This document shows positions 3,201 through 54,397 of a stretch of 64,000 nt of DNA, in pieces. The notes beneath the pieces are model-generated. The model did no database searches and was not told the origin of the DNA. It saw only the letters and a list, made by a program, of their open reading frames with translations. Origin of the DNA: Ruditapes philippinarum (taxonomy: Eukaryota); NCBI RefSeq assembly GCF_026571515.1, contig NW_026857783.1:178878-242877 (forward strand). The letters run 5' to 3'. Each line of letters starts with the position of its first letter. Position 1 is the stretch's first letter. The translations under genes and the position numbers were made by a program.

Positions 3201-3204
3201 AGGT

Positions 3205-4385: not shown

Positions 4386-4540
4386 CTAGAAAGTTGCCAT
4401 ATGATAATACAGTGTTGGTGTGACATACAAACAAAAATTAATTGAATGATAAAAGAGTTGATGATCTTGAATAAAATGAGTGACAAAAACATGACTAAAT
4501 ATTACTGTGCCATTTATATACATGTATATATATATTACAG

Positions 4541-4678
4541 AGATTGTCAGATCAATATTGTTGACATCTTTGCTGTAAATCGCCCGGTGGAGAGCAGCAA
4601 CTTCCTGTGGCATATCTCCAATAAACAACTTCTCTTCCACGCATCTAAAGCTAACAATATAGTTGGAATCTTATCCAG
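4541..4678 (+). CDS. PARP4: PARP catalytic domain exon (NAD-binding His block)
   Basis: DCQINIVDIFAVNRPVESSNFLWHISNKQLLFHASKANNIVGILSRGL parallels PARP1 YDLEVIDIF...[21 protein letters not shown] (H conserved, G to A); acceptor tatattacag|, donor CAG|gtaatt. Confidence 0.85.
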
Positions 4679-5424
4679 GTAATTACACAGATTGGTGAGC
4701 TATTTAAACTTTTTTATGGTAGATAATTATATAAAACATTACTGCGTGTTTGCAGTTAGACAATCAAACATGTATGTTACCTATATATACAGCTAATGCA
4801 AATTTGAGATTCTATTTCTACTTTTATCAAAGAAGGCAATAAATTTCCATATTATAAATTCTAAAGACTTGAATTGTTATTATATGGACATGTATAAACG
4901 GTTGTTTGCATTATAACCGTTATCAAGTGGCTTGTGTTAATAGGAGCTTACAGTCAGTTTTACTGGGCTATAGGAGAGGATCAGTGGTCAAGTGGTTATA
5001 CAGGTTCATTCCTTAACTACTCCACTAACAGTTCAAAATTTTAATGGTCTTTCATCTAAAAATAGCAAGGTCTCATGTATCTGTACTCTACACTTGGCAT
5101 GTAAAATAAATAGCTTATGGAACAGGTCAAATACTGCATCATTCATACAGTCCGCTAGAAATAAGAAAATATGCAGCATTGCAGATTGGGCAGCTGCACA
5201 CAACAGTTAGTAAAGTGAAGCAAAAAAAGAAAAATATTGGGCCATTTTACCTATATAATCTTGACCACAAATATACAAGCTGTAAGAATATTTTTCTTTA
5301 TTCTTCCTCAGGTTTCAAAGATTATTGCATCAGATTTAATGGCACATAATGCCTCAGAAACAAATAAAAAATTCTTTAAAAAGTTTGAGCATGTGCTTTA
5401 TAAAGTCTAAATAATGTCTTTAGA

Positions 5425-5580
5425 CCATGTTAGATGCTAAACACCAAAAGAGAGTAGTACTGAATGTGAAATTATGTTCATAAAAGTAGAAAAATGTAAA
5501 CAAAGCAGTAATTTGACTTCCATACAAAATACTAAATCACTATGACACTGTACTTGCCAAAAAAAAAAATGAACCAAAAG
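5425..5580 (+). repeat. SINE-like family B copy
   Basis: shares catgttagatgct..agtagtactgaatgtga..aatgtaaacaaagcagtaatttgacttccatacaaaatactaaatcac with 2490-2750; A11 tail. Confidence 0.5.
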
Positions 5581-5794
5581 ATGGTTCAGATTAGTATCCA
5601 GTGAGTAAATTTTCAGAAACTATAATTATCAGGTCACTAGAAATATAAAGCTTCTGAGAAAAAAAGATTGAAGAATGTATTGGGCATAATGGACAGGGAT
5701 AGGAATAGTCTATTGTACGGGCATCTTGCTTAAATTATAAAGAACCTTTTTGCATTGTTTATTATGAATTCTAAGTAATTAAGTTATATTTCAG

Positions 5795-5893
5795 AGGGTT
5801 GTTAATGCCGAGGGTTGTAGTGGAGGATCATGGAGGTACAAGGTCTGATCCTGGCATGTTGGGATCTGGTATTTACTTTGCAAGTGCTGCAAG
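5795..5893 (+). CDS. PARP4: PARP catalytic domain exon (GIYFA tyrosine block)
   Basis: LLMPRVVVEDHGGTRSDPGMLGSGIYFASAAR parallels PARP1 ...GYMFGKGIYFADM; acceptor tatttcag|, donor AAG|gtaatg; phase consistent. Confidence 0.85.
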
Positions 5894-6149
5894 GTAATGC
5901 TTTTGTAATTTTTGGTTTCAAATTGATATTTTAGATGATATTTTTCACATTTTGCTGTAAATTTATGTTTGAGTTTTTGCTAAATATTTTAATAAATTGT
6001 TATTTTTAATGGCTATTTTTTGTGTATATTAACAAAAATAATGTCTGGTCCAGAACTTTGTTGCTTTTTGCTGAATTTTAACTGTATGGAAGAATTGTAT
6101 TCCATCCTTAGACAATATGGCATGCTCAAGTTCCTCTTATATAGCAAGA

Positions 6150-6290
6150 GTATGCATAAATAGAGGATATTGAATGAGTGTATGTTTAATAACGAATTTA
6201 TTGAACAAGTTGAATAAAATTATTTTATGTGAGCCCCTGGAAAGCATAATAATATTTTCAACCAGTTCAATATATTCAGGTATGAACTTA
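6150..6290. repeat. palindromic MITE-like family C
   Basis: atattgaatgagtgtatgtttaataacgaatttattgaacaagttgaataaaatta; homologous to 19690-19850 and to hairpin element 60825-60970. Confidence 0.4.
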
Positions 6291-6650
6291 CACAAATTTA
6301 ATTATCACATACTGAAAATATATAGACCATTTGAAGCGAAAAAGTGCCAATTTTCATTGACACGCCTATAGTATAATGCTAATATTTAGCATGTCTTAAT
6401 GCTCTGTTTATATAACACAAATGACGTCACTTCAAAATATAATCACGGCTGTGCAATACCATGTTTACAAAGTTGTAAAAATGGCACTGGTATGTGATAA
6501 ACTAAATTTTGAATGTAGGTCATTATTACATTATACTTGTATTTTATTTCTAAGGAAAAGCATTAAACCTTTACAAAGGTCCATTTCTTTCTTCTTTTCA
6601 CAATAATTTTTTTGAAATGGTAGATTTGATTTTCTTTCTGCAATTTTTAG

Positions 6651-6834
6651 TACAAGTGTTGGTTATTCTCTGGCAAGTAAAACAAAAGGGTCAAGGTTTA
6701 TGCTGGTCAGTGAGGTTGCCTTGGGCAGGTGTATGGATACGTATCAGAAAGATTTGACCTTGACCTCTGCTCCAGAAGGTTATAACAGTGTACATGGTGT
6801 GAAATCTTCTCCAGGAGAACAATCTGCATTTAAG
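6651..6834 (+). CDS. PARP4: PARP catalytic domain exon
   Basis: STSVGYSLASKTKGSRFMLVSEVALGRCMDTYQKDLTLTSAPEGYNSVHGVKSSPGEQSAFK parallels PARP1 VSKSANYC...LLGEVALGNMYEL...KGKHSVKGLGKTTPDPSA; acceptor caatttttag|, donor AAG|gtacta. Confidence 0.85.
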
Positions 6835-7074
6835 GTACTATAATATATGATGTGTTTAGTTATCTAGGCTGTTGCACATCAATTTAATTTTTAGCTGTCT
6901 TTGATTTGAATCTGGAAATGTTCACTTACAGTTTAAGGGATTTTAATTTGAAAATATTATAGAAACCAATAGTGACCTTATGATGGCTGGACAAGCTCAT
7001 TTTTAGAAATTCAATAGTTTTAGGGTTAATAGTTACCCTTGAAGCTGGAGTGTCAGTCAATTTAATATTTTTGC

Positions 7075-7372
7075 ATTCGTCTCAGTGAGATATTATCCAT
7101 ATCTAACCAAATACTTGTTTAATAATCATTCCACTGACATATATAATTCATATCTAATCAAAAACTTGTTTTATAACAGGATTCTGATATTCCTCCAAGT
7201 GAGATATAATTCATATCTAATCAAAACTTGTTTTATAACAGGATTCTGTAATTTCTCTAAGTGAGATATAATTCATATCTAATCAAATCAAACACTCGTT
7301 TTATTACAGGATTTTGATATTCTTCCTAGTGAGATATTAGTGATATCTAATCAAAAACTAATTTTATTACAG
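7075..7372 (+). repeat. ~65-bp tandem repeat (4-5 units) duplicating the 3' splice-site region of exon 7373
   Basis: repeated gtgagatataattcatatctaatcaaaacttgttttataacag gattctgatattcctccaa; the last unit provides the real acceptor ttttattacag|GATGATGAG. Confidence 0.7.
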
Positions 7373-7526
7373 GATGATGAGTATGTGATATACAGCCCGA
7401 ATCAACAAAGACTGAAATATCTAGTAGAGTTTACTACAAAAACTGATGAAGTGAAGAGGACTTTTGAAGAGCTTGTAACCCTGGATGAAATGATGATATC
7501 TGATGATGAAGATTCTGATGTTATAA
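7373..7526 (+). CDS. PARP4: PARP catalytic domain exon (catalytic Glu block)
   Basis: DDEYVIYSPNQQRLKYLVEFTTKTDEV... parallels PARP1 [22 protein letters not shown]; acceptor ttttattacag|, donor A|gtatgt; ends phase 1. Confidence 0.85.
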
Positions 7527-8048
7527 GTATGTATATCATGAATAATTGTGAATTTGGTGCATGTATAATACAAATAAAAAGCAATGGGAATGGTTTTCCT
7601 TCAATGTATCTAAATATTCAAGGTTATATTGAAACATTCTGTTTGTTTCCACAGGAAAATATTTGAATGTTTTAAATTACAGAAACTGTGCAATTGTTGA
7701 ATTCTACACCAGCATCTTGTTACCTTCCTCCTGAAATTTAAGTTATAAATGTTATAAACTCATGAAAAAATAACCATGAAATATCAGACTGTAACCTGCA
7801 TTCTGTGTAAGATTCAGTTCTTTAAGGCCAGTGTAGTATTTCTCATTACATTTGTATGATATGTTTTGCTGTTTTTCACATCAGGAACCTTATAAGATTT
7901 AAATAATACTGAGGGCATACTAGAACAGGTGCAGAGTCAAAGGTCAAGGCTAGTCTCATCTCCGAGGCAGATTCAGATGTTAACCTTTTATAATTATGTG
8001 CATGTGTTTATTTATTGCAAAAATAACATTTTGTCATTGTCTTATTAG

Positions 8049-8179
8049 GTTTGAAAGATGTCAAGGACATTACAGACCCTATGTCAAAGGTCAAGGCCGG
8101 TCTTGTCTCCAAGGACGATGCACCGGTTAACCTTAAATCTGTACATGTTCGTGCTAAACTGATGGATTTGGCATCTGAG
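8049..8179 (+). CDS. PARP4: VIT (vault protein inter-alpha-trypsin) domain exon 1
   Basis: SLKDVKDITDPMSKVKAGLVSKDDAPVNLKSVHVRAKLMDLASE; acceptor cttattag|, donor GAG|gtaaat; phase 1 to 0. Confidence 0.8.
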
Positions 8180-8500
8180 GTAAATTATGTACATCTCTAC
8201 TGAGATGTCAGGGCAGAGAGAATTTTTGTGTGTTCAGGGTGGTTTTAGATAAAATACATGTAATTAATTGTAGGGTGGTTGTTAGTTAAACTGCCAATAT
8301 ATCCTCATTAATGATTTGAAACAACTTTTAAGAATGAATTTATTAGATTCAATGTGATAACTATATTTTCTTGAAAAAAAACATGTTTTAGTCATAAGAC
8401 ACTTATTAATAAGTTCAAAATTGATGTAGCTATGAAGACTTAAATGATATGCTCCTTTTTTCATTGTAAATTTGGGCTGACAGTTGATGTTGGAAATATT

Positions 8501-9235
8501 TATACCCCCGCACAACAAAGTTGTAAGGGGGTATACTGGAATCAGCTTGTCTGTCCGACCGTCCAGCTGTCTGGCCGTATGGCGTCCGTCGTTTTTTTCT
8601 TGTCCGCCCAATAACTTAAGAATCCTTTGACCCACAGTCTTCATATTTGGCATGGAAGTTAGTCATAATCAGTAGATGACCCCTATTGATTTTGAGGTCA
8701 CTGGGTCAAAGGTCAAGGTCACAGGGGCCTTGACTTCAAAAAGCTTGTCCGCCCAAAAACTTAAGGTTCCTTTGACCCACAGTCTTCATATTTGGCATGG
8801 AGGTTAGTCGTGATTAGTAGATGACCCCTATTGATTTTGAGGTCACCAGGTCAAAGGTCAAGGTCACAGGGGCCTTGACTTCAAAAAGCTTGTCCGCCCA
8901 AAAACTTAAGGTTCCTATGACCCACAGTCTTCATATTTGGCATGGAGGTTAGTCATGATTAGTAAATGATCCGTATTGATTTTGAGGTCACTGGGTCAAA
9001 GGTCAAGGTCACAGGGACCTTGTCAAAATAAAGCTTTTCCCCAATGCCTGTCCAGAGTGTATTGATTTTGACATTTTCACATTTGAAGCATGTAGAATAC
9101 ATAACTTAGCAATGCACTGGCTTAGTCACCTCAGATTTGGCAGGGTGGTTGTCCTTGAGTTCTAAATGGCCACTGTTGATTCTGACAAAGTGGTATGCGG
9201 GGGTATTCACGCCATGATAGTGGCAGTTCTAGTTT
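8501..9235 (+). mobile_element. TIR element (TATACCCCCG...CGGGGGTATT) carrying a 139-bp satellite (~3.5 units)
   Basis: 5' tatacccccgcacaacaaagttgtaagggggtatactggaatcagcttgtctgtccg; 3' ggtatgcgggggtattcacgccatgatagtggcagttctagttt; same family as 39347-41095. Confidence 0.6.
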
Positions 9236-9568
9236 ATGATAAAATATAAATCTGGCTAAAATATAAAAAAAGACTGTGCCACTGTTTTTCTAAACTGATT
9301 GCTACATTTGAATTATAATAGATATTGACAGACTTTTCCTTGGGCCATGTGAGTTATTTATCGTTTCTGCGAAGTGAATTATTAAATTAAAAGGAATTAT
9401 TGCACAATGAAAACTTATTTTGACTTTCACCTGTGCACTCACTATCTACCCTGCTTTATGAAGGAATGAAATGAGGCAGTGAAAAAATTCAAGAGCTTTA
9501 GAAAAGAGTGAAGTATATCATCAGATGAATCACAAGCAAAGTGTGCTAATGATAATCTTTTATTTTAG

Positions 9569-9793
9569 GTGGTTGTGTTGCAAGAATATGAAAACAACAG
9601 TAAGAACCCTCTAGAAGCAAAGTATGTATTCCCACTAGGAGATCTAGCTGCTGTTTGTGGGTTTGAAGCATTTATCAATGGAAAACATATCATTGGGGAA
9701 GTGAAGGAAAAAGAGCAAGCCCATAAAGAATATAAGAAGGCAATTAGTGAAGGGCATGGTGCTTATCTTATGGACCAAGATGAGGAAACTCCT
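9569..9793 (+). CDS. PARP4: VIT domain exon 2
   Basis: VVVLQEYENNSKNPLEAKYVFPLGDLAAVCGFEAFINGKHIIGEVKEKEQAHKEYKKAISEGHGAYLMDQDEETP; acceptor tattttag|, donor CCT|gtaagt; 75 codons phase 0. Confidence 0.85.
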
Positions 9794-10140
9794 GTAAGTA
9801 CAGTGAAACTGTATAAATGGTATAAAATATGATATTTGACCTGTATAAATGGTATATATAAATAAGATATGATATTGAAACCTGTATAAGTAGTATATTA
9901 AAATGGTATAATTTAGATATGATATTGGACCTTTATAAATGGTATGATCTTAGACCTGTATAGATAGTGTGTAAGTGTATAAATGTTATATCAGAATAAT
10001 GATATTTGACTTGTATAAATGGCATAATATTAGATATGATATTGGACCTGTATAAATGGTATGAAATGACATAATATTATGATATTGGACCATGAATTAA
10101 TGGTATAAGATAAGATATGATATATGACCTGTATAAATGG
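9794..10140 (+). repeat. ~60-bp tandem repeat (5 units) beginning at the 5' splice site of exon 9569-9793
   Basis: units tgatatttgacctgtataaatggtataaaatat...; first unit overlaps donor CCT|gtaagtacagtgaaactgtataaatggtat. Confidence 0.65.
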
Positions 10141-10876
10141 TTTAAAATTAGGTCTAATTTCAACATGATTAAAATTGGTGTATCAATTTGAATTAAATTT
10201 CAGTTTTGGACTTTTGGACAAGATGAATATGTCAGTAATTGTCAGTCAATACTACATTGTATTGATTTGTTTTAAAGTTAAATAATTTTCATGAGAGCTG
10301 GATATTCCCATCTGTACAAGAAAAGCATTGTCTGGTCCTTTTTCTTGCAAATTACAGTCATGTTAATTTAAGTTCAAATAGAATTAATCATATTAATATT
10401 TCCAGTTAAGCTGAGTTTACAATTTCATTCTTAATGGCAGAATAATGTCATTCAAAGCATGTGACTCATTCAACAATAGCTTTGTATAGCAGTGTCATGT
10501 AGACATATAGATATCTCTCTTATTCACTTTTAGTTTGAATTGAGTCTTTGATGAATGTATCACTGTATTGAATAAGAGTGTGACTTAAAATAGTGTTGGA
10601 ACATGCACAACACTAAATACTGTATTCCGGTATATACTGGAAAAGGTGCTTGAATGATTAAATTTTAAAATCTTTTGCCATTTCACCTGCCAAAATGCAT
10701 TTTGGAAAGTTTAATTCATCTCTTCCTACCAATTTATATAAGAACTTGAATGATAAATATAAGAATTGTTAAAAAAGAAAAAAAAAAGATTATTTTTCTA
10801 CTTTGTGATCATGATTTCTGCAAGTGTCTAACACTGTAGTGAGTTAAATCTATTGATTATCACTTCTTATTACCAG

Positions 10877-11038
10877 GATGTGTTTACAGTCAGCGTGGGC
10901 AACCTACCACCTGGGGCAACCGTGCTCATCAAGATCACATATGTGGCAGAGTTACAGGTGGAAGGGGAAATGATCAGCTTTAGGTTGCCCGGAAGTGTGG
11001 CTCCTTGGAAGAAAGATTCATTGAAGGAAACTACACAG
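10877..11038 (+). CDS. PARP4: VIT domain exon 3
   Basis: DVFTVSVGNLPPGATVLIKITYVAELQVEGEMISFRLPGSVAPWKKDSLKETTQ; acceptor ttattaccag|, donor CAG|gtatga. Confidence 0.85.
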
Positions 11039-11094
11039 GTATGATTTCTATCCTGTAGTTGGTGTTTTGACATTTTTCCATACTGAAGTTGTAT

Positions 11095-11240
11095 AATATA
11101 AGAAATATACTAGTCCTGATATGACTATGCACTGTCCTGCTGATTAGACTGTTCACTTCCCTGCTGACTGGTCTTTGCACTACCCTGCTGACTGGTCTTT
11201 GCACTGCCCTGCTGACTGGACTTTGCACTGCCTTGTACCA
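11095..11240 (+). repeat. 24-bp tandem repeat x5 (CTGCTGACTGGTCTTTGCACTRCC)
   Basis: ctgtcctgctgattagactgttcacttccctgctgactggtctttgcactaccctgctgactggtctttgcactgccctgctgactggactttgcactgcc, 57 bp after donor 11039. Confidence 0.7.
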
Positions 11241-11924
11241 ATTGATGAAGGTTGTGGTATAACTTGTGAGCAAATTTAAGAGGTTTTCTTTATCAAAACT
11301 GCTGAAACTTGGGCAGGTACCTGTAATAAGTCTGGTCAGACCATAAAGACTTTATGCTGGTGGTACAGCAAGCATGATAATTTTTTTGCTAAATAACGGT
11401 TTTTGACTTAACATGTTTTGAGTGCATGGCTGTGTGAAGCTTTGTATGGGTTGCTTGGTTCTGTTCTTATAGTGAAGGCCAGATGTCATTAGATAACTTA
11501 TATGTTAAAGAAGCTCAACTTAGGTTGAAAAGTCTAAGAACATTATATTTTAAACTGTTACATAATTTAACTGGTGCACTTTATATGGAAAAATATGCAA
11601 AAATTAATAAAAAAAATTACACTCTGTATTGAAAATGAAAATCAATTTTTCAGTGCAATTTTAAGCCCGCTTTGAGTTAAAAGCACTTTTAAATGCTTTT
11701 CATCTTTAGTCATTTTCATTTGCACAATAAAAATGATTATTCTGCTAAAATAGAGTGATCAATGATATGAAATTTTGCACACAAGTTAGTGTTGTATACC
11801 TTCAACAGTTGGTACACAAATCGTGATAAAGTATTTCCAGTCCCTCCATGTCAAAAAAACTTCTGAATCAGTAGAGTTGCTTTAAAAGGTTCATATGGAG
11901 AATTTCTTTTCTTTCTTGTTCCAG

Positions 11925-12038
11925 CATGAGACAGAAACCATAGAGGTTAAACAAGGGGAGACAAGTCTACAGGTTTCTGTAGAGATGCCCTTTGACATAA
12001 GGTCGATTGAATGTCCTTCACAAAAGATAAAGGTCAAG
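11925..12038 (+). CDS. PARP4: VIT domain C-terminal exon
   Basis: HETETIEVKQGETSLQVSVEMPFDIRSIECPSQKIKVK; acceptor tcttgttccag|, donor AAG|gtgagt; 38 codons. Confidence 0.7.
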
Positions 12039-12311
12039 GTGAGTTATCAATAGAAATTCAACACTCAAGGAAGACATATATTTGGAAGAATTTATTTAGA
12101 GTCTGAAGTAAAATTTAACTATGTTGCTTTATTAAAGTTATGAAGCATTTTCAGGTATTGTTTTTGTTTAAAAGAGATGTTGTTGATTGTTTGATTATGG
12201 ATAGACTTGGTTCTTTTATACAAGTAATTTGTTTCTTGATAAATGCCTCTGAAACAAAAAAATTGTACTTTTTTTAGATAGGGCAAACATAGTTTTATAA
12301 CATTTAATAAT

Positions 12312-12490
12312 GATTTAAGAGCATGTTAGATGCTTATCATCTAAAGAATGTAGTGCTGAACGTTAAATTATTTCTCTTGAAAAAAAACAAAATGTTAACA
12401 AAGTAGTATGTTGACTTACCTACAAAAGACTTTATCAAAATTAACTATACTTATTGCAAAATGCAAAAGAAACAAATGATGGTTCTGGTT
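12312..12490 (+). repeat. SINE-like family B copy
   Basis: gagcatgttagatgcttatcatctaaagaatgtagtgctgaacgttaaatt...atgttaacaaagtagtatgttgacttacctacaaaagact. Confidence 0.45.
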
Positions 12491-12741
12491 AATTGGTCAA
12501 TGAGTAACTTTTTGAAATTTTTTGAGGACATTTGAAAGCTTTTGAAGAATGAACATAAAGCATTTCTGTGATATAATGGGCCTTTTAGTACCTAAAACAT
12601 TTACAATTCTGGATATATCAAATATTTGTGTCGATAAAAACTTGTAAATTATGTTTTTAATGATGACTTGCTTTATGTAATGATAAAAAATAGACAAATT
12701 TACATAAAACATTCTCACAGTATTTGAAATATATTTTACAG

Positions 12742-12879
12742 AGGACATTAACAAAAGCAACAATTGAAATGTTGGAAGGAGAATCTATTGGGGATGGTTT
12801 CCAGCTTTTGATTGGTTTAGCTGAGATACATGTACCAAGAATGTGGGTGGAACGGAAACCAGACGATCAGAATCATCAG
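12742..12879 (+). CDS. PARP4: VIT-VWA linker exon
   Basis: RTLTKATIEMLEGESIGDGFQLLIGLAEIHVPRMWVERKPDDQNHQ; acceptor atattttacag|, donor CAG|gtgatt; MITE copy begins 26 bp downstream. Confidence 0.7.
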
Positions 12880-12905
12880 GTGATTGATTCTAATACAAAA
12901 TAAAT

Positions 12906-13128
12906 GAGCGGCATCATGACAAAACCAACATAATGCGACCAGCATTGATCCAGACCAGCCTGCGCATCCGTGCAGTTTGATCAGGATCCATGCTAGCAGT
13001 TTCTTTACTTGTTATAGGGTCTGTAGGCGAACAGCATGGATCCTGATCAGACTGCGCGGATGCACAGACTGGTCTGGATCCATGCTGGTTGCAAACCCAT
13101 GATGTTGGTTTTGTCATGGCGCGGCTCA
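12906..13128. mobile_element. MITE (family M), full copy with AAAT target-site duplication
   Basis: TIR gagcggcatcatgacaaaaccaacat ... atgttggttttgtcatggcgcggctc; internal palindromic core cctgcgcatccgtgcag / ctgcgcggatgcacag; flanks aaat|...|aaat. Confidence 0.8.
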
Positions 13129-13764
13129 AATGAGATTCAAGGATGCAATGTTGAGTTAAAATATTGGGGATATGTGTTTGTTTCTCTGTTCAATGCAGAA
13201 TGAATACCTAATCTGATGTATTTTGAACTATATAGCCAAGAATGAAAATAAAACGGCATGTGTTCATGACTAGAATATAATTTGATCTGTCAAACAGAAC
13301 AATAAATTTTCTACTTATTTCATGCTTTCCAGCTGTTTTCTGATTATTTCCTTGATTTCATAGCTACCACTTCATGACATCTTCAAATTATGACATCACA
13401 ATATCCAGGTTGATAAAAAAATAGTTGTGTAAAGTTTTTATCAAAGGATGTTTTTCAAAAATTAATGATCATGAATCTTTTATGTACTGACATGGAGTAT
13501 TGTTTAACAGATTATTTTTAAGAGCCATAGGTTCTTTTTATTTTTAGATATTTCTTAACCATGCCAATAAAAACAAAAGCTAAACAATTGGCATTTAGGA
13601 ATATATTAATTTACACATGTACAATTAAATGTCATGTCCCTGAAGAAAGAAAATTTGAAAATTGAAAGAAAATGCTAATTAACTTCTTGTTTACTCTATG
13701 ATTGTAAGAGATCATACAATTGTCAGATGTTTGTATATATTTTTTTCTTATCTTGTTTATAAAG

Positions 13765-13951
13765 GCATGCATGTTGGCATTTTACCCAGAATTTGAGGCG
13801 TGCGAGACGGATGATGTAAACATGATTCTACTGCTGGATCTGTCCAATTCTATGAAAGGAGATGCCATTGTTAGTGCCAAAAAAGTTTTACTGCTGACCC
13901 TTCAACATTTACCTTCCACCTGGAACTTTAATGTCATAGTGTTTGGAACAG
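13765..13951 (+). CDS. PARP4: VWA domain exon with MIDAS motif
   Basis: ACMLAFYPEFEACETDDVNMILLLDLSNSMKGDAIVSAKKVLLLTLQHLPSTWNFNVIVFGT; DLSNS is a DxSxS MIDAS motif; acceptor tttataaag|, donor G|gtgtgt. Confidence 0.85.
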
Positions 13952-14751
13952 GTGTGTGTGTCTTTGTGTGTATTTCTTAATCATAAGGTTAAACTGTTAG
14001 TCATTCAAGTGTTTTAATAGTAGTGGTATTGATAAAGAGACCATTTGCATCAGCACCATTCTAGAGAAAGGTAAAACAGTACATCAATGTTGTTTGACTT
14101 ATGTCTGTTCTGTTTTGCTGCTAAGTTGTCAATATGTTATGATATAAGAATCTTTCGATACCTTTACTACAACGCATTTTTAGACCTTTACGCAAATTAA
14201 GCATGGTAAGAGATAAAATTCTATAACTTATAATTTTTCAGTTACTTTTAGTCCTTTATTTCACTGTTTTAGTGTGTACAGGTGAGCTTCATAGGTCTTC
14301 CCTCGCCAGAGGTCAAGCTAAAAAGTTTTTTTTTAACAGTGTCACTTGAAATATAAAGACACTTAATAAAAACAAAACTTCACATTTATTAAACAGAACT
14401 TTTATCTTTTTCTTTGAGATTATTTTCAAGTCATCAGTAATGTTGGTTTACCCGTAACCTGGTGAATCTCTTAAATGTACCTCTCCAGCTTCCATTTTAG
14501 AATAGTCCACTATCAGTTTTGGGGATATCAAAATGAAATTTGAAGTTGCACAGTCAACAGACTGCACAGATATCCAGGCTGGCCTGTGTCTATACTGGTG
14601 ACAAAGTCAAAATACTTTAGATTCTAGCATGTGTAGGGTTCAAGTTGATATGAAAAGGTCAATGTTCATAAGACGGAGAAATAATCAAAGTAACAAATTT
14701 TTGACACATGTAGTTATTTTTAGTAACATTATGTAATTTTGTTTATTTCAG

Positions 14752-14825
14752 CCTGGAAAGAGTTGTTTCCCACTTGTGTAGCTAAAACTTCATCAAATAT
14801 GAAACAAGCATCAGAGTTTGTGATG
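14752..14825 (+). CDS. PARP4: VWA domain exon
   Basis: AWKELFPTCVAKTSSNMKQASEFVM; acceptor gtttatttcag|, donor ATG|gtaaat; phase 1 to 0. Confidence 0.65.
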
Positions 14826-14954
14826 GTAAATACACATGTATTTGTATAGAGAAAGTAAAGGAATTTTGTGACATTGCTCTTAATTTGTTTATGTCAAGCT
14901 TTGCTACTGACAGAAAAATAGGACCTTCACACTCATACGAGTGTATCTACAACA

Positions 14955-16105
14955 GGGTGTATCTTTGTTATACCCCCACAAACGAAGTTTAGGGGGGGTA
15001 TATAGGAGTCAGCTTGTCGGTCGGTTGGTCGGTCGGTCGGTCCACATCATGGTTTCCGGACGATAACTAGAGTTTGGAATGAGATATTGTAATCAGACTT
15101 GGTATATAGCAACCTTATGTGGAAACTCCGGTTGGTATTGCATTTGGACCCCCTGGAGTCAAGGTCAAGGTCAACGTTACTGAAAATAGAAAAATGGTTT
15201 CCGGACAATAACTACAGGTAGGAACGAGATATTGTTATCAAACTTGGTGTATAGCAAGCTTACATGAAGACCTGTGTTGGTATTGCATTTGGACCCCCTG
15301 AGGTCAAGGTCACCGTTACTAAAAATAGAAAAATGGTTTCCGGACAATAACTATGAATGAGATATTGTTATCAAACTTGGTGTATAGAAAGCTTATATGA
15401 AGACCTTGGTTGGTATTGCATTTGGACCCCCTGGGATCAAGGTCAAGGTCACCGTTATTTAATGGTTTCCGGACAATAACTACAGTTAGGAATGAGATAT
15501 TGTTATCAAACTTGGTGTATAGCAAGCTTATATAAAGACCTGGGTTGGTATTGCATTTGGACCCCCTGGGGTCATGGTCAAGGTCACTGTTACTAAAAAT
15601 AGAAAAATGGTTTCCAGACAGTTACTAGAGTTAGGAATGAGATATTGTTATCAAACTTGGGGTATAACAAGCTGATATGAAGACCTGGGTTGGTATTGCA
15701 TTTGGGCCCACTGGGGTCAAGGTCACTGTTACTAAAAATAGGAAAATGGTTTTCGGACAATAACTTGAGTTAGGAATGAGATATTGTAATCAAACTTGGT
15801 GTATAGCAAGCTTATATAAAGACCTGGGTTGGTATTGCATTTGGACCCCCTAGGGTCAAGGTCACCGATACAGTGTTACTAAAAATAGAAAAATGGTTTC
15901 CGGACAATAACTAGAGTTAGGAATGAGATATTGTTATCAAACTTTGTGAAAAGCAAGCTTATTCAGAGACCCCAGTTGGGATTACAATTAATTGAAATAT
16001 TTCTTTGTACACAGTTGATAGTTTGTGATCAATTTTTCTTCAGACTACTTACTTTTCAAAAAGTCAAAGTTGCTGGTGGGGGTATTAATCACCTTCAGTG
16101 ATAAG
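14955..16105 (+). mobile_element. TIR element (TTATACCCCCAC...GTGGGGGTATTA) with ~165-bp satellite x5
   Basis: 5' gttatacccccacaaacgaagtttagggggggtatataggagtcagcttgtcggtcggttggtcggtcgg; 3' gttgctggtgggggtattaatcaccttcagtgataag; internal unit ...ggtttccggacaataactagagttaggaatgagatattgttatcaaacttggtgtatagcaagctta... Confidence 0.6.
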
Positions 16106-16817
16106 TCTAGTTATTTTTTGGCACTAAAGGCCTTAAGGCAGTAATGTTTTTATCTTTGAATTTTACCTTTTACTGTTTCATGTAATAATTGATTGTACAG
16201 GGAAACTTCTGTAGTTCTTCTTTCTTATGAGAAGGAAGAACTATGTTTGTTGAAATTCACTGAGCCGTGATGCTATTAAATTTCACCTAGAAATCCAAAG
16301 CATTCAGAATGTATATGGGACATGCCATTTTGTTCTATGGACAGTGCCATTTTGATATAAGGTAGTTTTACTTTTAGTTTAGAGGTAAACACAGTTACTA
16401 GCAGCAGACTATAGGAAACAGTATGATTGTCATCATAGAACAGAAGAAGAAAAGTTTAGAAAAAAAAAGACAAAATTTAATGTATTATAATAAATGTCAT
16501 TTTGCGTGTATAAATTATTTCAGTAAATATATATTGTGACACCCCCACTTCCACCTTCAAATGGGACAAGTCTATCTGTTAATTGCATCAGAAAACATTG
16601 TATTGTCTATTTAAAGGTTGAATTGTCTGGCCCCTTTAAGACCATTTCTAGTCAAAGGAAACCACATCTGCATGACACTGCTTATTTTTTCCAGCTTCTA
16701 AACATGGACTCCTGTTTATAATCAAATGTATATTCATAAATTTAGTGTTGCCCTTGAAACAATTTTGGTAAGCTTAACTTGTTGAAGTAGCTAAATCTCA
16801 AGATAATGATATTTCAG

Positions 16818-17005
16818 AGCTTGTCTCCAACTATGGGTAACACAGAGGTTGTGAGGCCACTACATACATTCTACCTGATGAAACAGGAAAACTCCATGCA
16901 GAATGTGTTACTTATATCTGACGGACATATGAACAACACGGAACTGTTACTAAATAGTGTACGAACAAATTGCCAACATACCAGAGTGTTTACTGTAGGA
17001 GTCAG
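16818..17005 (+). CDS. PARP4: VWA domain exon
   Basis: SLSPTMGNTEVVRPLHTFYLMKQENSMQNVLLISDGHMNNTELLLNSVRTNCQHTRVFTVGV (VLLISDG... and VFTVGVG-type VWA blocks); acceptor atatttcag|, donor AG|gtaaat. Confidence 0.8.
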
Positions 17006-17745
17006 GTAAATCAATAAATACTTGGTTTAAACATATTTTTATTCAAAGTAATATATACATGTTAAAATTTACAATTTAAGCAGAAAGGAATTGGACCGAG
17101 AGCTACAATAGCTCATGGTAGTCCTCTCCTTTAACAAAAGCAATATGTTCATACATGTATATTACATGGCTTATCATAATTTTAATTAAACCCTATAAAG
17201 AAGGAAAATGAAGAGAAAAAAAATACAAATACATGTATGCAATTGATAGAAAATAATAAAGAGAAAGATGGAGAAAAGAGGAGTTTGCGGATGTTTCTAT
17301 ATCATTTGTCGTTTTGGTAGGAACATCATGTATGGAAAAAAAAACACTTTATTTTGAAGTGATAAGAAAATTGTTTGTGTTGATCAGGTATATGATTTAT
17401 AGGGATTTATAGATTGGTGAAAGTGGCAAGGAATCAAATAAGTTATAACTTGATTGCATTTTATAAAAGTGCATGTAATCATACTGTAGACAGGCTAAGA
17501 GCACATTTTTAAACAGATTTTTGAAGTTCTTATACATTCTTATTGTTCAGGTTTACCTGCTTTGTTATTAAAAATAATGTCCTAAAGATAATTTTTGTTA
17601 ATACATTATAGAAAAAGATAAGCATTTGGGCTTGATAACATATATCCCAAAGATATTTATATCGTTTATTAATGAGATGATACTTAAAAAAAAGTTGTAT
17701 AACATGAAATAAGGTAAAATACTTGAGGTTAGTGATTTGAGCATC

Positions 17746-17911
17746 AGCTCAGTCTGATCAGGATCCATGCTGTTCACTATCAGTTTCTCTACTTGTAATA
17801 GAGTTGGTAAGCGAACAGCATGGATCCTGATCAGACTGCGCGGATGCACAGGTTGATCTGGATCCATGCTGGTCACAAATGCGCAATGTTGGTTTTGTCG
17901 TGACGCGGCTC
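17746..17911. mobile_element. MITE family M, 5'-truncated copy abutting acceptor of exon 17928
   Basis: ...cagtctgatcaggatccatgctgttcactatcag...atgttggttttgtcgtgacgcggctc then atttatgtttttacag|TGG. Confidence 0.75.
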
Positions 17912-17927
17912 ATTTATGTTTTTACAG

Positions 17928-18027
17928 TGGCACAGCTGACAGACACATGTTGAGGGCTTTGGCTAGAGTTGGTGCAGGGTCCTTTGAGTACTTTGATACA
18001 AAAGTTAAATCTAAATGGGAAACAAAG
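17928..18027 (+). CDS. PARP4: VWA domain C-terminal exon
   Basis: SGTADRHMLRALARVGAGSFEYFDTKVKSKWETK; acceptor tgtttttacag| lies 14 bp after a MITE end; donor AAG|gtaaaa. Confidence 0.75.
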
Positions 18028-18391
18028 GTAAAAGTGATGGGCTGAGTATAGAAATAGTATGGTTAATTGTTTGTCATGTTGCTTAAGTTATTCCAAAATT
18101 CATGTTGTATTCCAGAAGACTGATACCTACAAACATTTCCAAAGATTTGTATGAAATAATTTTCTATTTTTCCATGAATATCTGTCAACTTCTCCTCAGA
18201 ATACATTGCATCAGTCTATGTAGGATAAAAAGACATCAGCCAAAAAATGTTTTCAACCAAATAGAAATTGAAAAATTTATCCAGCTTGGAGACTGCAGTT
18301 GATAAAGATCTGTAGAAATTGTACCCTCCCTGCAATTTGAGGTTCTTGTCTTTATTTTATCTATTATATCTAAATGTCTTTATTTAACAAG

Positions 18392-18562
18392 GTTAAATCT
18401 CAGATCAGCAAGGCCGCCCAGCCAGGTCTGACGTCAGTACAAGTGGAATGGGAACAGCATGGTGCCGATGTTCCACCTCCGGTTCAAGCCCCTCGACAAA
18501 TTACGGCCCTATTTAACGGTTCTCGTTCCGTGATATACGGATATGTTCCTAACTGTACAATG
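18392..18562 (+). CDS. PARP4: PARP4-like post-VWA exon
   Basis: VKSQISKAAQPGLTSVQVEWEQHGADVPPPVQAPRQITALFNGSRSVIYGYVPNCTM; acceptor tatttaacaag| is weak; donor ATG|gtaagt; 57 codons. Confidence 0.65.
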
Positions 18563-18926
18563 GTAAGTTCATTTTCTATTTTGTTTTCTGGTTGCTATAA
18601 TCTCTTATGGAGTATTAGAAATCTGTGTTTATATTTGCCACTTACATTTTTGTATTATATCTCCCTCTAAAAGTTATGATATTATAATTTATTTCCCTCT
18701 AAAATTATATTAATTTTGCCTTTAATATTTTTGAAAAAGACCATTGCTGGAGACTTACAACTAAATGCTCATGCAAATTTTATAAAAAAAAGAAAAGAAC
18801 TTTTTAACACATTATATTTGAATTTTATGCATCTAACTTGCATGCTATCTGTAGTATTAAATGGTAATTGTGCATAAAAATTAATATCCATATCCTCAAT
18901 ATAAGTATGAACTTCTGTAATTTTAG

Positions 18927-19007
18927 GCAACATTGAGAGCAAGTGTAGCTGGAGAAGAGGTCTCCACCATGGTATCAACCTCGGACCTCAGTATTACAAA
19001 TGGACAT
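18927..19007 (+). CDS. PARP4: PARP4-like post-VWA exon
   Basis: ATLRASVAGEEVSTMVSTSDLSITNGH; acceptor taattttag|, donor CAT|gtaaga; 27 codons. Confidence 0.6.
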
Positions 19008-19260
19008 GTAAGATTTTAAACTGTAGCATAGATTGATTATAAACTTCCCATAGCATGCCAAACATAATCATAAGTTGTTGTTTTAATATTAAAATTCAGA
19101 TATAACTTTTTTAACAATTTATCGAATATTTAGTATTGGGTCATTTGGTACGCTGACAATATATCATTATAAAATTTCTGTGAAAGTTAACTATACAGGC
19201 ATGACCTCACATGTATTTATTTAAAATTTGATAAATAGGCATAATAACTTTATTTTCCAG

Positions 19261-19341
19261 ATTTTACATCGTCTGACAGCAAGGGCAATAATCAGTGACT
19301 GGGAAAATGGAGTCTTGTCTGCTGACCGTACTGACCATGAG
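19261..19341 (+). CDS. PARP4: PARP4-like post-VWA exon
   Basis: ILHRLTARAIISDWENGVLSADRTDHE; acceptor tttattttccag|, donor GAG|gtacag. Confidence 0.65.
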
Positions 19342-19689
19342 GTACAGTAAAATTCCCCAAATCTGTGGGGTATTTATTATAGACATTTTTCACCAGTACA
19401 GGAACCATACTGTCCAGTCTTACCAGAATCATTTTTGACAGCAGTATTTCAACATTTTGACATCAGATTACTAGTACCAGTGAAATATGATTTATATCAT
19501 TCACTATATATGATCTCTAATTTATAAAAACACAGTCTTTTTATATGTTAGGCATAATAAAATTTTATCCTAAACATTTTCTTATATCAAATGTTGGTCA
19601 ATCACCAATATAACAGTCGATGTTTTGAAATATATAGTCATTCCAGCTCAACTTGACAATGAAAAAAGAGGCATAATGTTTTTTTAAGA

Positions 19690-19850
19690 TGATAAATTGC
19701 AGTCTATTATATATAGAGCATATTGAATGAGTGTTGGTTTAATACTAAATTTATTGAACGAGTTGAATAAAATCATATTATGCAAGCATAATATTTTTCT
19801 ATTCCACGAGTTAAATGAATTTAGTTTTGATTCTACACGAATATAGTATT
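19690..19850. repeat. palindromic MITE-like family C copy
   Basis: atattgaatgagtgttggtttaatactaaatttattgaacgagttgaataaaatcatattatgcaagcataatatttttctattccacgagttaaatgaatttag. Confidence 0.4.
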
Positions 19851-20096
19851 CTATTTGTCACACATATAAAAAAGAACGGTAAACTGTTAACAAGAGTCAC
19901 TTTTATTTGACGCACTATAGTGTAAAGCTAACAAGGCGCTTTAACGCTATGTTCATATATAGAGCGCCAATGACATCACATCAAAGTGTTATTACACAAG
20001 TGTTATATTGTTTTTAGTACATGGCTTTATTGTACTCCTGCACTATTAATTTAAAGAAGTAGGAAATTTCATGTATTTAATTATATTTTATTACAG

Positions 20097-20198
20097 ATAT
20101 TGAAGATGAACACTAAAGATTATATCATTGAGTTAAGTAAGGAGTACTCTATTGTCACTCAATTCACCAGCTTTGTTGCCATAGAAAAAAGAGACAAG
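20097..20198 (+). CDS. PARP4: PARP4-like exon with TSFVA motif typical of VIT/VWA-family C-terminal region
   Basis: ILKMNTKDYIIELSKEYSIVTQFTSFVAIEKRDK; acceptor ttttattacag|, donor AAG|gtatag. Confidence 0.7.
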
Positions 20199-34058: not shown

Positions 34059-34665
34059 ATGGCACAATCCTATGAGAAATTCTCGGCACAGGCAGAGGTA
34101 TCTACAAAAAGGCTTATGGATGTAGACACACATAAAGCTACGCCTGAATTAGAACAGATGTTAGATGCTGGAGCTGATACAATGTTTAAAAAAGTAAACT
34201 CCAAATCGGCAGCATATGACAGTGATGATGAATCTTGTGATGATGATATGGGATTTGATCTTTTTGGGGGGGATAGTTATGAAAAACAGGAAAGGTCTTC
34301 ACCTAGTCCTGTCTCACGTAAAACACATGGTGGAATGCTCAATCGTGACATACATTTAAGATCACCTATAGAGATAGAGAAAGAAGAGATTGTCCAGAAA
34401 GCTGTATCACATGTAAATGTAGATATGCTAGAGTGTAGTGAAGAGCCTGAATTTGCATACTGTTTGAGCATGGAAAAAGACTATACTGAACCTATGGAAG
34501 AGTGTTATGAAGATGATGACATTTATGAGAACCCTGAAGTTGAATATGAAGGTCAGAGGGGGACCTTTGCAGATTTGAGTCATGACTTATCTGCACGTGA
34601 ACAAATTACTATGAAAGCAAATGTAGTATCAAGTTTTGATAGTGAACCTCAGTTTGATGAAATTG
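34059..34665 (+). CDS. large acidic exon containing ribosomal P-stalk-tail-like motif
   Basis: 607-nt ORF MAQSYEKFSAQAEV...DSDDESCDDDMGFDLFGGDSYEKQERSSP...; acceptor tattatag|ATG; donor TTG|gtgagt at 34666; ATG sits at first exon position. Confidence 0.65.
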
Positions 34666-41160: not shown

Positions 41161-42444
41161 AAAAAACCAGCAAGGAGAGCAATGAAGTCACATTTCAAAG
41201 CTCCTGAATCATCAAGTATTAGTTCACAAGCAGAAAAAGCAGAAACTGGCCTCCCTTCTCATCTTCATTTGAGTAATTGTTCCATGGCACCACAGTTGCA
41301 TCAGCTAATGGCACCACAATTGCAGCAAATGGCACCACAATTGCAGCCGCAAATGGCACCACAATTTCAGCAGCACATAGCACCACAGGTGCATCAACAA
41401 ATGGCACCACAATTGCAACAGCCACAACAACAGCTAGATATGCCACAACCTAATGCAAGAACTGATAAATTTATGTCTAGGTCTAAGCCTCCTAAATTTA
41501 TGTCTAGGTCTAAGCCTCTTGAAACTTATTCTGCATTGGAAAGGTCTGATGAATCATTGATGCATCAGATGGATAAAATTCCAACAGTGCATAATTATTT
41601 TTCAACAAGTTCTCCTTTTTCTCCTGCACCATTGAGTGCACCACCACCACCCCCACCTCCTCCAGGGGATACCCCAAGACCCACACCACAACTAGGGGTT
41701 GCTATTATTCCTTCATCTTTTCAAGTAGCATCTAGTTATCAAGCTCAGATACCAAGTTTTGGTTTTGGTGCAACAACGGGTGCATCACCACAACCCCCAC
41801 CTTCATCAAATAATGCGACTATACCACCCCCATGTCCTCCAATGCTTGCCCACAGATTCCAACCATCGAGAGCTCCAAGCTATTTATCTTTCGAAGTAGA
41901 GCCTAGATATGCAGCTAAAGCACCAAGTTTTGCTTTTAGTGCAACAACGGGTGCATCTCCACCACCACCACCTCCTTCAAAGGAAGCTCACAGACCACCA
42001 CCTCCACCAGGGGGTGCCCCCAGACCAACACCACCACCACCTCCAGGGGGTGCTCCCAGACCACCACCACCTCCAGGGGGTGCTCCCAGACCAGCACCAC
42101 CACCACCTCCAAGGGATGCTCCCAGACCTCCAGCTTCTCCAAGGGGTGCTCCTAGCCCTTCATCTTCTCTAGTAACATCTAGACATCCAGCTCCAGATCC
42201 AAGTTTTTCTTTTGGTGCAACAACTGGTGGATCTTTGGAAATGCTAAAAAGTTGTCCCAATATTAGCCCTATTAAGAGGATGATTGCAATGTCATTATCT
42301 AAATCTGCTGTTGATGATAATGATATGGAGTTTACCAAAGCCTCTAAGCAGGAAAGCAAAGAAATACCTGAGAAGAAAAGCATTGAAGCTCATGTTAGAA
42401 GAAATTATGGGGGAAGGAGGGTAGATATGCGTGAACTTCAAGAG
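41161..42444 (+). CDS. 1284-nt low-complexity exon: Q/P-rich MAPQLQQ repeats, FG-type PSFGFGATTGASP repeats, polyproline PPPPGGAPRP repeats
   Basis: long ORF in frame from acceptor ttttttttgcatacag| (41159-41160) to donor GAG|gtttgt (42445); 428 codons; repeat structure explains the overlapping antisense ORFs. Confidence 0.7.
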
Positions 42445-52249: not shown

Positions 52250-52349
52250 AATGGTTACTGGGAGATGAATGATAATTTGGAGAAATTACTCTGCATTGAC
52301 TTCAGTATCTGTAAATCTGTTCTGGAGACAGCTGGCTTAAAATCACTAG
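52250..52349 (+). CDS. C-terminal domain exon (NGYWE motif; possible VIT/VWA-family C-terminal/MVP-binding-like region)
   Basis: NGYWEMNDNLEKLLCIDFSICKSVLETAGLKSL(G); acceptor tttgttttacag|, donor TAG|gttggt. Confidence 0.55.
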
Positions 52350-53987: not shown

Positions 53988-54397
53988 GATTAAAATGCCA
54001 CGAGGAAATTCTTCACCTTATTTCCACCGCCATAGTACTGATGCAAATGTTCAAGCTTCTGTTGCCACAAGCGTTTCCTCGTAACTGTAAGCTATACTTC
54101 GATGACAGTCAGGATGCCGTCATGATCAAATTGGTGTCTGAAAAAATCGAAATTACAAAATTTGATCCGGCTGGTACAGACAGGGATACAGTAAGGACGG
54201 CAATAGATATGGCTTTTGAATTCTGGGTATGGGCAGATAAAAGACACCCACTGGTTTGTACGAGTCTAGAGCTGGGGTCAAACTGGTACGAATTTGTTGG
54301 ACGCTGTTTGAACTTGCATAGAGAAGGCATTAGCCCAAAAATACAGGAGAAAACAATGTTTGCGAAAAGCACTGTAAAACAACCGATTTTGGTATAA
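53988..54397 (+). CDS. terminal coding exon with TAA stop
   Basis: (G)LKCHEEILHLISTAIVLMQMFKLLLPQAFP...WVWADKRHPLVCTSLELGSNWYEFVGRCLNLHREGISPKIQEKTMFAKSTVKQPILV*; acceptor catttattacag|; total CDS 639-54397 is 6639 nt, a multiple of 3. Confidence 0.6.

Follow-up and report, generated by a model that had tools for sequence, protein, structure and literature searches.

A repeat-built, predicted disordered linker exon before the MVP-ID of a PARP4 (vault PARP) gene in Ruditapes philippinarum

The closest described relative of the element considered here is exon 30 of human PARP4, the vault PARP. It is the largest exon of that gene and encodes about 360 amino acids (aa) of disordered and fast-evolving sequence, variable in length among vertebrates (Daugherty et al. 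2014, PLoS Genet, PMC4038475). In the protein, this segment connects the MVP-ID with the ITIH-like region that precedes it (Suskiewicz et al. 2023, NAR, PMC10450202). In the human vault the C-terminus of PARP4 is anchored near the vault waist, while long disordered regions are free in the lumen (PMC12280208). PARP4-like proteins with 14-3-3, actin and ubiquitin-related add-ons are also known, and these add-ons have been interpreted as connections to signalling or to the cytoskeleton (Perina et al. 2014, DNA Repair, PMC4245714). Here we analyze a 64,000-nucleotide (nt) stretch of the Ruditapes philippinarum genome, hereafter the window, in which the forward-strand interval 41161-42444 forms a large exon composed of tandem repeats. 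We consider it highly probable that this is the large linker exon of a PARP4 gene, resized by its own repeats and encoding a flexible tether with short binding motifs. Judging from its position, it appears to be the counterpart of human exon 30 and so of a kind already described for vertebrates.

Coding frame and gene identity

The interval 41161-42444 contains a single open frame of 428 codons, and each of the remaining five frames has 15-35 stops. At the stop-codon frequency of the whole window (0.066 per codon), the chance of 428 open codons is about 2e-13; after 2000 shuffles of the exon the longest open frame was 264 codons (mean 92.5). The GC content of codon positions 1, 2 and 3 is 57%, 58% and 23%, proline codons are CCA/CCT with the same usage as in the conserved exons of the gene, and all repeat unit lengths and spacings are multiples of three. 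The exon is preceded by a polypyrimidine tract and AG (...tttttttgcatacAG/) and followed by /GTttgt. Its 3′ end is spliced phase 0 to phase 0 to the exon at 52250-52349, which is followed by the last exon at 53988-54397. The resulting junction, ...RRVDMRELQE/NGYWEMNDNLEKLL... (RELQE/NGYWEM), restores a conserved LQxxGxW motif that is split by the intron and is also present in Aplysia (LLKSQNGAGYWEF), Haliotis (LTLQQKDGFWEF), Plakobranchus and coral. Since the frame with FG and proline repeats is the only open one, has a codon-position bias, preserves its phase through the repeats and splices in phase to MVP-ID exons, these features together demonstrate, at the level of sequence analysis, that it is the coding frame. 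An earlier note, made from the letters alone, had described one 428-codon exon at this place and had read it in this frame. Both descriptions stand, save that the exon may start at 41171. The spurious reading frames that it expected the repeats to create also exist, one of 87 aa at 41909-42172 (+) and another of 131 aa at 41988-42383 (−).

The window opens with the PARP regulatory subdomain, in the interior of the gene, whose 5′ part lies beyond the 64 kb. Pfam searches detected PARP_reg (the helical regulatory subdomain) at 1429-1650, with an E-value of 0.0018 that is below the Pfam threshold, the PARP catalytic domain at 6616-6840 (E=9.6e-11, above threshold), and VIT at 9569-9829 and 10877-11059 (E=1.3e-24). 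The vWA domain with the rest of the ITIH-like region follows at 12727-20198, where the VWA_2/3 matches (~2e-4) come from a single exon. In tblastn searches, mollusc PARP4 proteins gave 12-14 collinear exon high-scoring segment pairs (HSPs) with 52-87% identity. The upstream exons are collinear with PARP4 of oyster, ark clam, limpet-type gastropods, coral and fish, and the highest per-exon identity, up to 87%, is to bivalve PARP4. A protein database search returned 146 PARP4-type matches, the best of which were all PARP4 (top identity 63%, Saccostrea). At the C-terminus, a profile made from MVP-ID fragments (alignment A1) retrieved proteins annotated as PF26156 'PARP4 MVP-ID' and matched residues 1583-1709 of human PARP4 in PDB entries 9bw6/9bw7/11jf (E=2.4e-18). 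The last exon is 96% identical to a protein from the Joint Genome Institute (JGI) collection (P0151). Because of the PARP_reg, PARP, VIT and VWA exons, the collinear orthologues and the C-terminal MVP-ID match, the gene is, on the strength of its domains and exon order, a PARP4 orthologue, in agreement with the vault-PARP-like gene proposed earlier, and the exon under study lies between its ITIH-like region and its MVP-ID. With 1274-1284 nt it is also the largest exon of the gene, the runner-up (34059-34665) having 607 nt. The coordinates of the features are collected in Table 1.

Table 1. Exons of the PARP4 gene in the window and elements of its large linker exon
Feature	Position	Strand	Evidence or remarks
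Upstream conserved exons of the same gene	1429..20198	+	Pfam; collinear tblastn HSPs with mollusc, coral and fish PARP4
Acidic linker exon before the large exon, 607 nt	34059..34665	+	Splice sites; ends in phase 1 at G/GTGAGT
Large linker exon of the PARP4-like gene	41161..42444	+	428 codons; AG/GT bounds; an acceptor at the second AG would give 41171-42444
Gln-rich array, 24-nt unit x5.9	41284..41422	+	Tandem Repeats Finder (TRF) score 173, 78% matches; repeat family D2, 6 copies
27-nt duplication, KFMSRSKP(P/L) x2, basic motif	41466..41519	+	TRF 100%; repeat finder (D5) 96%
First poly-proline unit PPPPPPPPGDTPRPT, aa 161-175, heading the first higher-order unit	41641..41685	+	D3 copy 1 at 41643-41786
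FG-like motif copy 1, PSFGFGATTGASP, aa 198	41752..41790	+	Conserved core of the D3/D4 higher-order repeats
FG-like motif copy 2, PSFAFSATTGASP, aa 255, both FG dipeptides lost	41923..41961	+	D4 copy 2 at 41883-42002
Poly-proline array, nested 30/36/66-nt units	41959..42169	+	TRF scores 151-276; repeat family D1
FG-like motif copy 3, PSFSFGATTGGSL, aa 347	42199..42237	+	D3 copy 2 at 42090-42233
Non-repetitive 3′ end ...KKSIEAHVRRNYGGRRVDMRELQE, predicted helical, start of MVP-ID	42358..42444	+	AF2 helices aa 406-416, 423-427
Next coding exon, NGYWEMNDNLEKLLCIDFSICKSVLETAGLKSL(G), part of MVP-ID, 100 nt, entered in phase 0	52250..52349	+	Matches P0112; alignment A1
Last coding exon, bulk of MVP-ID	53988..54397	+	Stop TAA 54395-54397; phmmer, 17 matches

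Repeat anatomy, predicted disorder and a possible tether role

Nucleotide tandem arrays were confirmed by both TRF and a repeat finder, so that the exon is repeat-built, as had been noticed before. The Gln-rich array reads MAPQLHQL / MAPQLQQ / MAPQLQPQ / MAPQFQQH / IAPQVHQQ / MAPQLQQ, and the counts of six MAPQLQQ-type ([MI]APQ) units and two KFMSRSKP units match those given in the earlier note. A basic motif comparable to KFMSRSKP, LMKMSRPPP, is found in the oyster Saccostrea (P0001 tail). The poly-proline array encodes three PPPPPGGAPRP(T/A) units, then PPPPPRDAPRP and PASPRGAPSP. Counted by the pattern P[GR][GD][AT]P[RS]P, the exon has six such units, and exact PGGAPRP is seen in three of the six; five lie in the tandem array and one upstream of it, where the earlier note had given five copies. 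A motif scan found three RxxPxxP (class I SH3-type) matches in the exon, two of them inside this array. The FG unit, PSFxFxATTG, had been counted four times but is present in three copies (aa 198, 255 and 347), and because these units number three, the whole exon holds only three FG dipeptides. Dispersed higher-order copies measure 144 nt (75% identity, spacing 447) and 120 nt (76%, spacing 171). These two dispersed copies show, as read from the repeat alignment, that a unit of ~150-170 nt, composed of poly-proline, SSFxVxS... and PSFxFxATTG, underwent triplication first and a further expansion of its poly-proline part later. Proline accounts for 21% of the residues, serine for 12% and alanine for 10%, and there are six runs of at least four prolines, the longest of eight, which are tracts of the kind seen in FH1/WASP-type regions.

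The structure of the exon product was predicted with AlphaFold2 (AF2). The mean predicted local distance difference test score (pLDDT) was 47.3 and the predicted template modelling score (pTM) 0.14, with 279 of the 428 residues below a pLDDT of 50 and only short helices, at aa 68-78, 371-376, 406-416 and 423-427. Both pLDDT and composition point to a disordered chain, as expected of an exon of the human exon 30 type. In the protein, the chain follows the acidic portion of the linker and leads to the helical C-terminal MVP-ID, to which its last ~25 residues belong: the peptide encoded by 42358-42444 aligns with Aplysia, Haliotis and Plakobranchus (alignment A1). That the stretch may simply be a disordered linker, an aside in the earlier note, turns out to be the best-supported reading in view of the AF2 disorder and the match to the published properties of exon 30.

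Comparison with other molluscs indicates that the position of the exon is better conserved than its sequence. As a protein-database query the exon had no homologue at E<=0.001, the list of 8000 candidates being filled with low-complexity words, and in composition-corrected alignments with the linkers of Aplysia, Plakobranchus, Saccostrea and Stylophora the best E-value was 1.4. Residue-level homology to other linkers was rejected, as the matches vanish under composition correction, and only positional and motif likeness was kept. The equivalent oyster segment, from the end of the acidic exon to the ...RELN junction, is about 150 aa long, and its likeness to the exon is confined to traces such as LMKMSRPPP and ...RQLRELN. 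Since this counterpart is far shorter and has just these traces in common, the linker exon of the window is, by this sequence comparison, inflated by its repeats relative to oyster. The Aplysia locus L001 has an exon that measures at least 423 codons, its 5′ part being hidden by an assembly gap. It ends with ...SQNG/gtgagt and is followed by an exon of 100-102 nt (starting with AGYWEF) and then by the last exon. As the intron positions match those of the window, this is an exon-level orthologue of the large exon studied here.

The gastropod relatives are hidden under unrelated names. Aplysia californica XP_005096629.2 (P0133) was automatically named 'nuclear envelope pore membrane protein POM 121' and Plakobranchus ocellatus GFO43317.1 (P0137) 'DNA-directed RNA polymerase II subunit rpb1', although both end in the PARP4 MVP-ID. 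They are likely mis-annotated C-terminal halves of PARP4, and the names probably stem from their low-complexity FG and YSPTSP repeats. Like the window, Aplysia has poly-proline tracts followed by FGFG...ATTG-type motifs, as well as recurring P(A/S)SF motifs. The gastropods differ in having far more FG units (13 in Aplysia, in the form GGATFGS) and YSPTSP heptads similar to those of the RNA polymerase II (Pol II) C-terminal domain (CTD), which the window lacks, and in being devoid of the MAPQLQQ and KFMSRSKP arrays. Both models lack the N-terminal half of PARP4, probably due to split gene prediction or assembly gaps; a search of 10 kb on the 5′ side of the Aplysia model, a flank full of N gaps, yielded no N-terminal PARP4 exon. 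Automatic annotation can thus mislabel C-terminal halves of PARP4 as POM121 or Rpb1.

We propose that the exon would encode a disordered Pro/Ser/Ala/Gln-rich chain of ~425 residues, built and resized by in-frame tandem duplication, either by replication slippage or by unequal exchange of 24-, 27-, 30-, 36-, 66- and ~150-170-nt units. If the human vault structure is a guide, the MVP-ID would pin the C-terminus to the inner vault wall, and the exon product would serve as a tether allowing the ITIH-like and catalytic head to move in the vault lumen. Poly-proline and PxxP tracts would form polyproline II (PPII) helices, potential ligands for profilin-, SH3- or WW-type modules. The PSFxFxATTG motif may act as a hydrophobic FG-like sticker in a Ser/Thr/Gly/Ala context that could recruit partners or give weak multivalent cohesion.

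Several points weigh against this proposal. Both the role as a tether and the binding by motifs are carried over from the structure of the human vault and from what is generally known of such motifs, and the AF2 run used a single sequence, which makes it a weak predictor of disorder. Paralogous repeat units differ evenly over the three codon positions (12/12/12 and 9/8/12). Because of this evenness there is no sign of purifying selection outside the PSFxFxATTG core, suggesting near-neutral drift there, and the motifs could be neutral by-products. No transcript or protein match was found for the source species, and none of the searched collections held a same-species copy of the exon. Metagenome scans with six peptide patterns and with the poly-proline unit CCAGGGGGTGCYCCCAGACCA found no related exon copy either, and exact-protein look-ups of the 442-aa and 145-aa open reading frames (ORFs) gave no match. 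Finally, the strong donor of the preceding exon at 34665 (G/GTGAGT) leaves phase 1, which does not fit a start at 41161. A direct splice from 34665 to 41161 was rejected, as it is out of frame and meets a stop after 14 codons; therefore, either a start at 41171 or an unseen micro-exon is required. A second AG at 41169-70 is in frame with the phase-1 donor, the junction then reading ...FDEI-A-RRAMKSHF.... Since the donor fits this AG and not the one before 41161, the true exon start is probably 41171, a shift of 10 nt, unless a small exon intervenes.

Motifs, add-on modules and rival explanations

The earlier note called the FG motifs nucleoporin-like and the proline tracts FH1/WASP-like. In a Pfam search of the exon at E<=10 there was neither Nucleoporin_FG nor any FH1-associated family, the only match being a meaningless one to Efg1 (E=0.23). 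No domain for anchoring to the pore scaffold was found: Pfam searches of the exon and its neighbours gave only PARP4-type domains, ubiquitin and synaptobrevin. There was also no Pfam match to FH2 or WH2/VCA on the exon or on the downstream exons, where the domain is MVP-ID. With three FG dipeptides in 428 aa, in a motif present in three copies, 'nucleoporin-like FG repeats' was an overstatement, whereas the FH1/WASP comparison holds for poly-proline composition and fails for FH2, WH2 or any other partner domain. Membership in either class, FG nucleoporin or FH1 domain, was rejected.

To assess the FG motifs we counted FG dipeptides in the 430 aa preceding the MVP-ID in five species and compared the counts with those in composition-matched shuffles. 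FG exceeded expectation in the window (3 vs 0.72 expected, p=0.027), Aplysia (13 vs 2.6, p<0.00025), the coral Stylophora (5 vs 1.3, p=0.006), the frog Ascaphus (7 vs 1.5, p=0.0003) and the sponge Geodia (3 vs 0.67, p=0.026), bearing in mind that the counts are small, that copies within a protein are not independent and that the species sample is whatever the searches returned. The reverse dipeptide GF was not enriched in any of the five linkers, and runs of at least four prolines stand beside FG motifs in all of them. In Plakobranchus the FG array is located farther upstream; oyster has no FG and human has two. In coral, the linker contains GLFG/FxFG-type motifs and matches Nucleoporin_FG weakly (E=0.0046, 18 bits). 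It belongs to an ORF that runs for 1840 aa without interruption on an assembly contig of 6.2 kb, which looks transcript-derived. Since FG recurs in other PARP4 linkers and the Aplysia fragment was automatically named 'POM121', the motif counts suggest that the FG observation is not purely accidental. We regard the cross-phylum enrichment, often coupled with poly-proline, as a sequence-based lead and not as a result.

The linker of Ascaphus truei PARP4 (P0194) has three PPPPPP-F-Y-S-S units with PPxY (WW-ligand type) cores, plus PLFGFGLSSSTTS. It is, as far as the sequence goes, a vertebrate example of the poly-proline and FG pattern.

Other parts of PARP4 linkers carry recognizable modules. 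In the window, a complete ubiquitin fold ending with LRLRGG is encoded by two exons, 24382-24453 and 25720-25881 (+; Pfam positions 1-72/72, E=2.2e-26), and the ubiquitin add-on recurs in a PARP4 fragment of Bulinus (P0120) and in P0061, a protein from ENA. It is followed by an R-SNARE exon at 28030-28137 (+), NENIQAVLERGEKLDELVEKSGDLSLQSQMFYKTV, which matches Pfam Synaptobrevin with an E-value of 4.7e-9 (36 bits against a cut-off of 26.4 bits); matching SNARE pieces occur in Saccostrea (P0001, aa 682-720) and Geodia (P0196, aa 1453-1508). The acidic exon 34059-34665 carries DDESCDDDMGFDLFGGD, which resembles the tail of the ribosomal P-stalk; its acidic motif DSDDESCDDDMGFDLFGGD (DDDMGFDLF) at 34200-34270 (+) has a weak match to Pfam Ribosomal_60s (profile positions 74-88/88, E=0.033), and P-stalk-like motifs are found in the PARP4 linkers of the oyster Saccostrea (EEDVDMAFALFDDDD) and the ark clam Tegillarca (DEDLEFGLFGDGE). 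Above Pfam thresholds, the Saccostrea linker (P0001) has synaptobrevin and an N-terminal piece of actin, that of Geodia (P0196) a full 14-3-3 and synaptobrevin, and an invertebrate linker (P0185) an Hsp70 substrate-binding domain and a partial 14-3-3. Pol II CTD-like YSPTSP heptads are present in the linkers of Aplysia, Plakobranchus and Lingula.

How these motifs and modules came to be collected in one linker invites explanations other than a plain tether. One is that the linker displays look-alikes of host proteins targeted by pathogens, the FG-like and poly-proline modules of the large exon being two such baits; a pathogen factor binding or cutting a module would, speculatively, be caught at the vault or ADP-ribosylated by PARP4. 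We rate this idea as rather unlikely for the exon. Its wider form is also unlikely in our view. Here, a disordered chain tethered to the vault wall would be an ancient modular bait array with ubiquitin, R-SNARE, P-stalk tail, actin N-terminal piece, 14-3-3, Hsp70 substrate-binding domain, CTD heptads, FG units and FH1-like poly-proline as baits. The modules themselves speak for it: the ubiquitin fold, R-SNARE exon and P-stalk-like tail in the window's own gene, the synaptobrevin/actin, 14-3-3 and Hsp70 pieces and YSPTSP heptads in other PARP4 linkers, and Aplysia FG arrays strong enough to earn the name POM121 at NCBI. So does the proposal by Daugherty et al. (PMC4038475) that positive selection acts on the disordered exon as an interface between host and pathogen. 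The case is, however, purely comparative, with no pathogen factor or interaction known; the literature searched contained nothing tying PARP4 to a decoy, and Perina et al. 2014 (PMC4245714) read the add-ons differently, as noted above. The oyster counterpart segment is without the FG motif. Moreover, several of the models are automatic predictions that may fuse fragments of neighbouring genes, although the recurrence of modules across phyla counters such fusion. Were a bait array to exist, vaults would have a role in innate-immune sensing and the rapid turnover of the exon would be explained.

Alternatively, the FG-like units might constitute a genuine nucleoporin-type FG domain that binds transport receptors or coheres with FG nucleoporins, which we hold to be very unlikely. 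In that case nuclear pores would serve as docking sites for PARP4 or vaults, or an FG phase would arise within the lumen of the vault, consequences to which we give just as little credence. The excess of FG but not GF over shuffles in all five linkers and the weak Nucleoporin_FG match inside the transcript-like coral ORF are in line with such a domain, as are vaults reported at nuclear pores (Chugani et al. 1993). Yet FG density is about 0.7 per 100 aa (3/428), mutation has turned one of the three units into FAFS, and the Pfam family is unmatched in the exon even at E<=10. The counts are small, copies within a protein arose by duplication and are not independent, FG dipeptides are absent or few in oyster and human, and the literature searched is silent on FG repeats in PARP4. 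Finally, the stretch might not be a PARP4 coding exon at all but an open intronic minisatellite or a separate gene with its own promoter. Annotation of XP_005096629.2 and GFO43317.1 as separate proteins devoid of PARP, VIT and vWA, the 10 kb upstream of the Aplysia model that are free of PARP4 exons, and the misfit of the 5′ splice phase at 41161 would agree with this. We find it highly improbable, given the probability of the 428-codon frame by chance, its coding-type codon-position bias, the in-phase junction to the MVP-ID with an intron positioned as in Aplysia, and a strand and order collinear with the PARP4 exons. Full-length coral and frog models (BRCT to MVP-ID) include both linker and MVP-ID, as does a sponge model that is N-terminally truncated and begins in VIT, and the transcript-like coral contig spans the two. 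The upstream flank in Aplysia is so full of assembly gaps that the absence of exons there is uninformative. A large, repeat-resized PARP4 linker exon encoding a flexible tether is the reading that we prefer.

The locus contains further repeats outside the coding exons. A satellite with a 145-nt unit (6.1 copies, 83% identity) occupies 40008-40888 in the intron, ~270 nt 5′ of the large exon. An interspersed repeat is found in introns on both strands, at 12917-13203, 17601-17909, 23277-23441, 27598-27965, 49003-49170 and 49691-49891; translation of its open frames gives ...SMDPDQTARMRRLVWI(H/Y)AGR... from one strand and ...WILIRLRGCAGWSGSMLVAN... from the opposite one, and it is probably an element similar to short interspersed elements or miniature inverted-repeat transposable elements (SINE/MITE-like). 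Tandem units of ~334 nt occur at two distant intronic sites, 3426-4104 (−) and 47398-47837 (−), with frames reading ...VKKSTKGHNSVKFGRSKNSFLYYHLHIKVVHPCKFKQNLPSGLRGVAFTKF.... About 60 nt past the stop codon, an insertion of ~1.4 kb (~54457-55900) includes a 173-nt x6.2 satellite at 54548-55621. A JGI metagenome contig (L002, sample 3300049158) that is 96% identical to the last exon does not have this insertion and resumes near window position 55900, a 32-nt stretch of it being identical to 55935-55966.

Comparison with known systems

Taken alone, the exon is an ordinary though extreme case of a repeat-built disordered linker, and its value is comparative. The motifs and add-on pieces of PARP4 linkers offer a testable handle on the function of PARP4 in vaults, through binding partners or pathogen factors.

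The exon shares with FG nucleoporins (Nup62, Nup98, POM121; PF13634) FxFG/SFGFG-type dipeptides in a disordered Ser/Thr/Gly/Ala-rich context, and PSFSFGATTG resembles a single Nup62-type unit. It has three FG dipeptides instead of tens, however, and its spacers are proline-rich and partly charged. Similarly, the tandem runs of 5-8 prolines with short Gly/Ala/Arg spacers (PPPPPGGAPRP), expected to adopt PPII, are like those of FH1, WASP/WAVE and Ena-VASP regions, but there is no adjacent FH2, WH2/VCA or EVH2, and no FPPPP (EVH1) or PPxY (WW) core. The protein context, a vault PARP, is unrelated to that of formin and WASP proteins.

Among PARP4 proteins with add-ons, the gene in the window is of the type described by Perina et al., as its linker has extra modules after vWA, the ubiquitin fold and the R-SNARE piece, both located outside the exon 41161-42444. 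The FG-like, poly-proline, CTD-heptad, P-stalk-like and SNARE-like elements, as well as the possible bait role, go beyond that description (PMC4245714).

The closest counterpart is vertebrate exon 30, for which our comparison covers the published primate alignment and one frog protein, the retrieved fish and mammalian PARP4 entries being short isoforms that lack the linker. As in human and other vertebrates, the mollusc exon is the largest of its gene, encodes at least 300 predicted disordered residues between the ITIH-like region and MVP-ID, varies in sequence and length, and has a basic patch near its start. Scattered FG-type motifs are seen in exon 30 of some primates (SLFGVSAPAFGSS, and GAGFGFAPPPR in Old World monkeys). 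Unlike human exon 30, the mollusc exon is visibly made of young tandem repeats, with 21% proline against 11% and six runs of at least four prolines against none, and residue-level alignment of the two is impossible. The largest exon, predicted disordered and placed before the MVP-ID, has kept its position from molluscs to humans while its sequence has been completely turned over.

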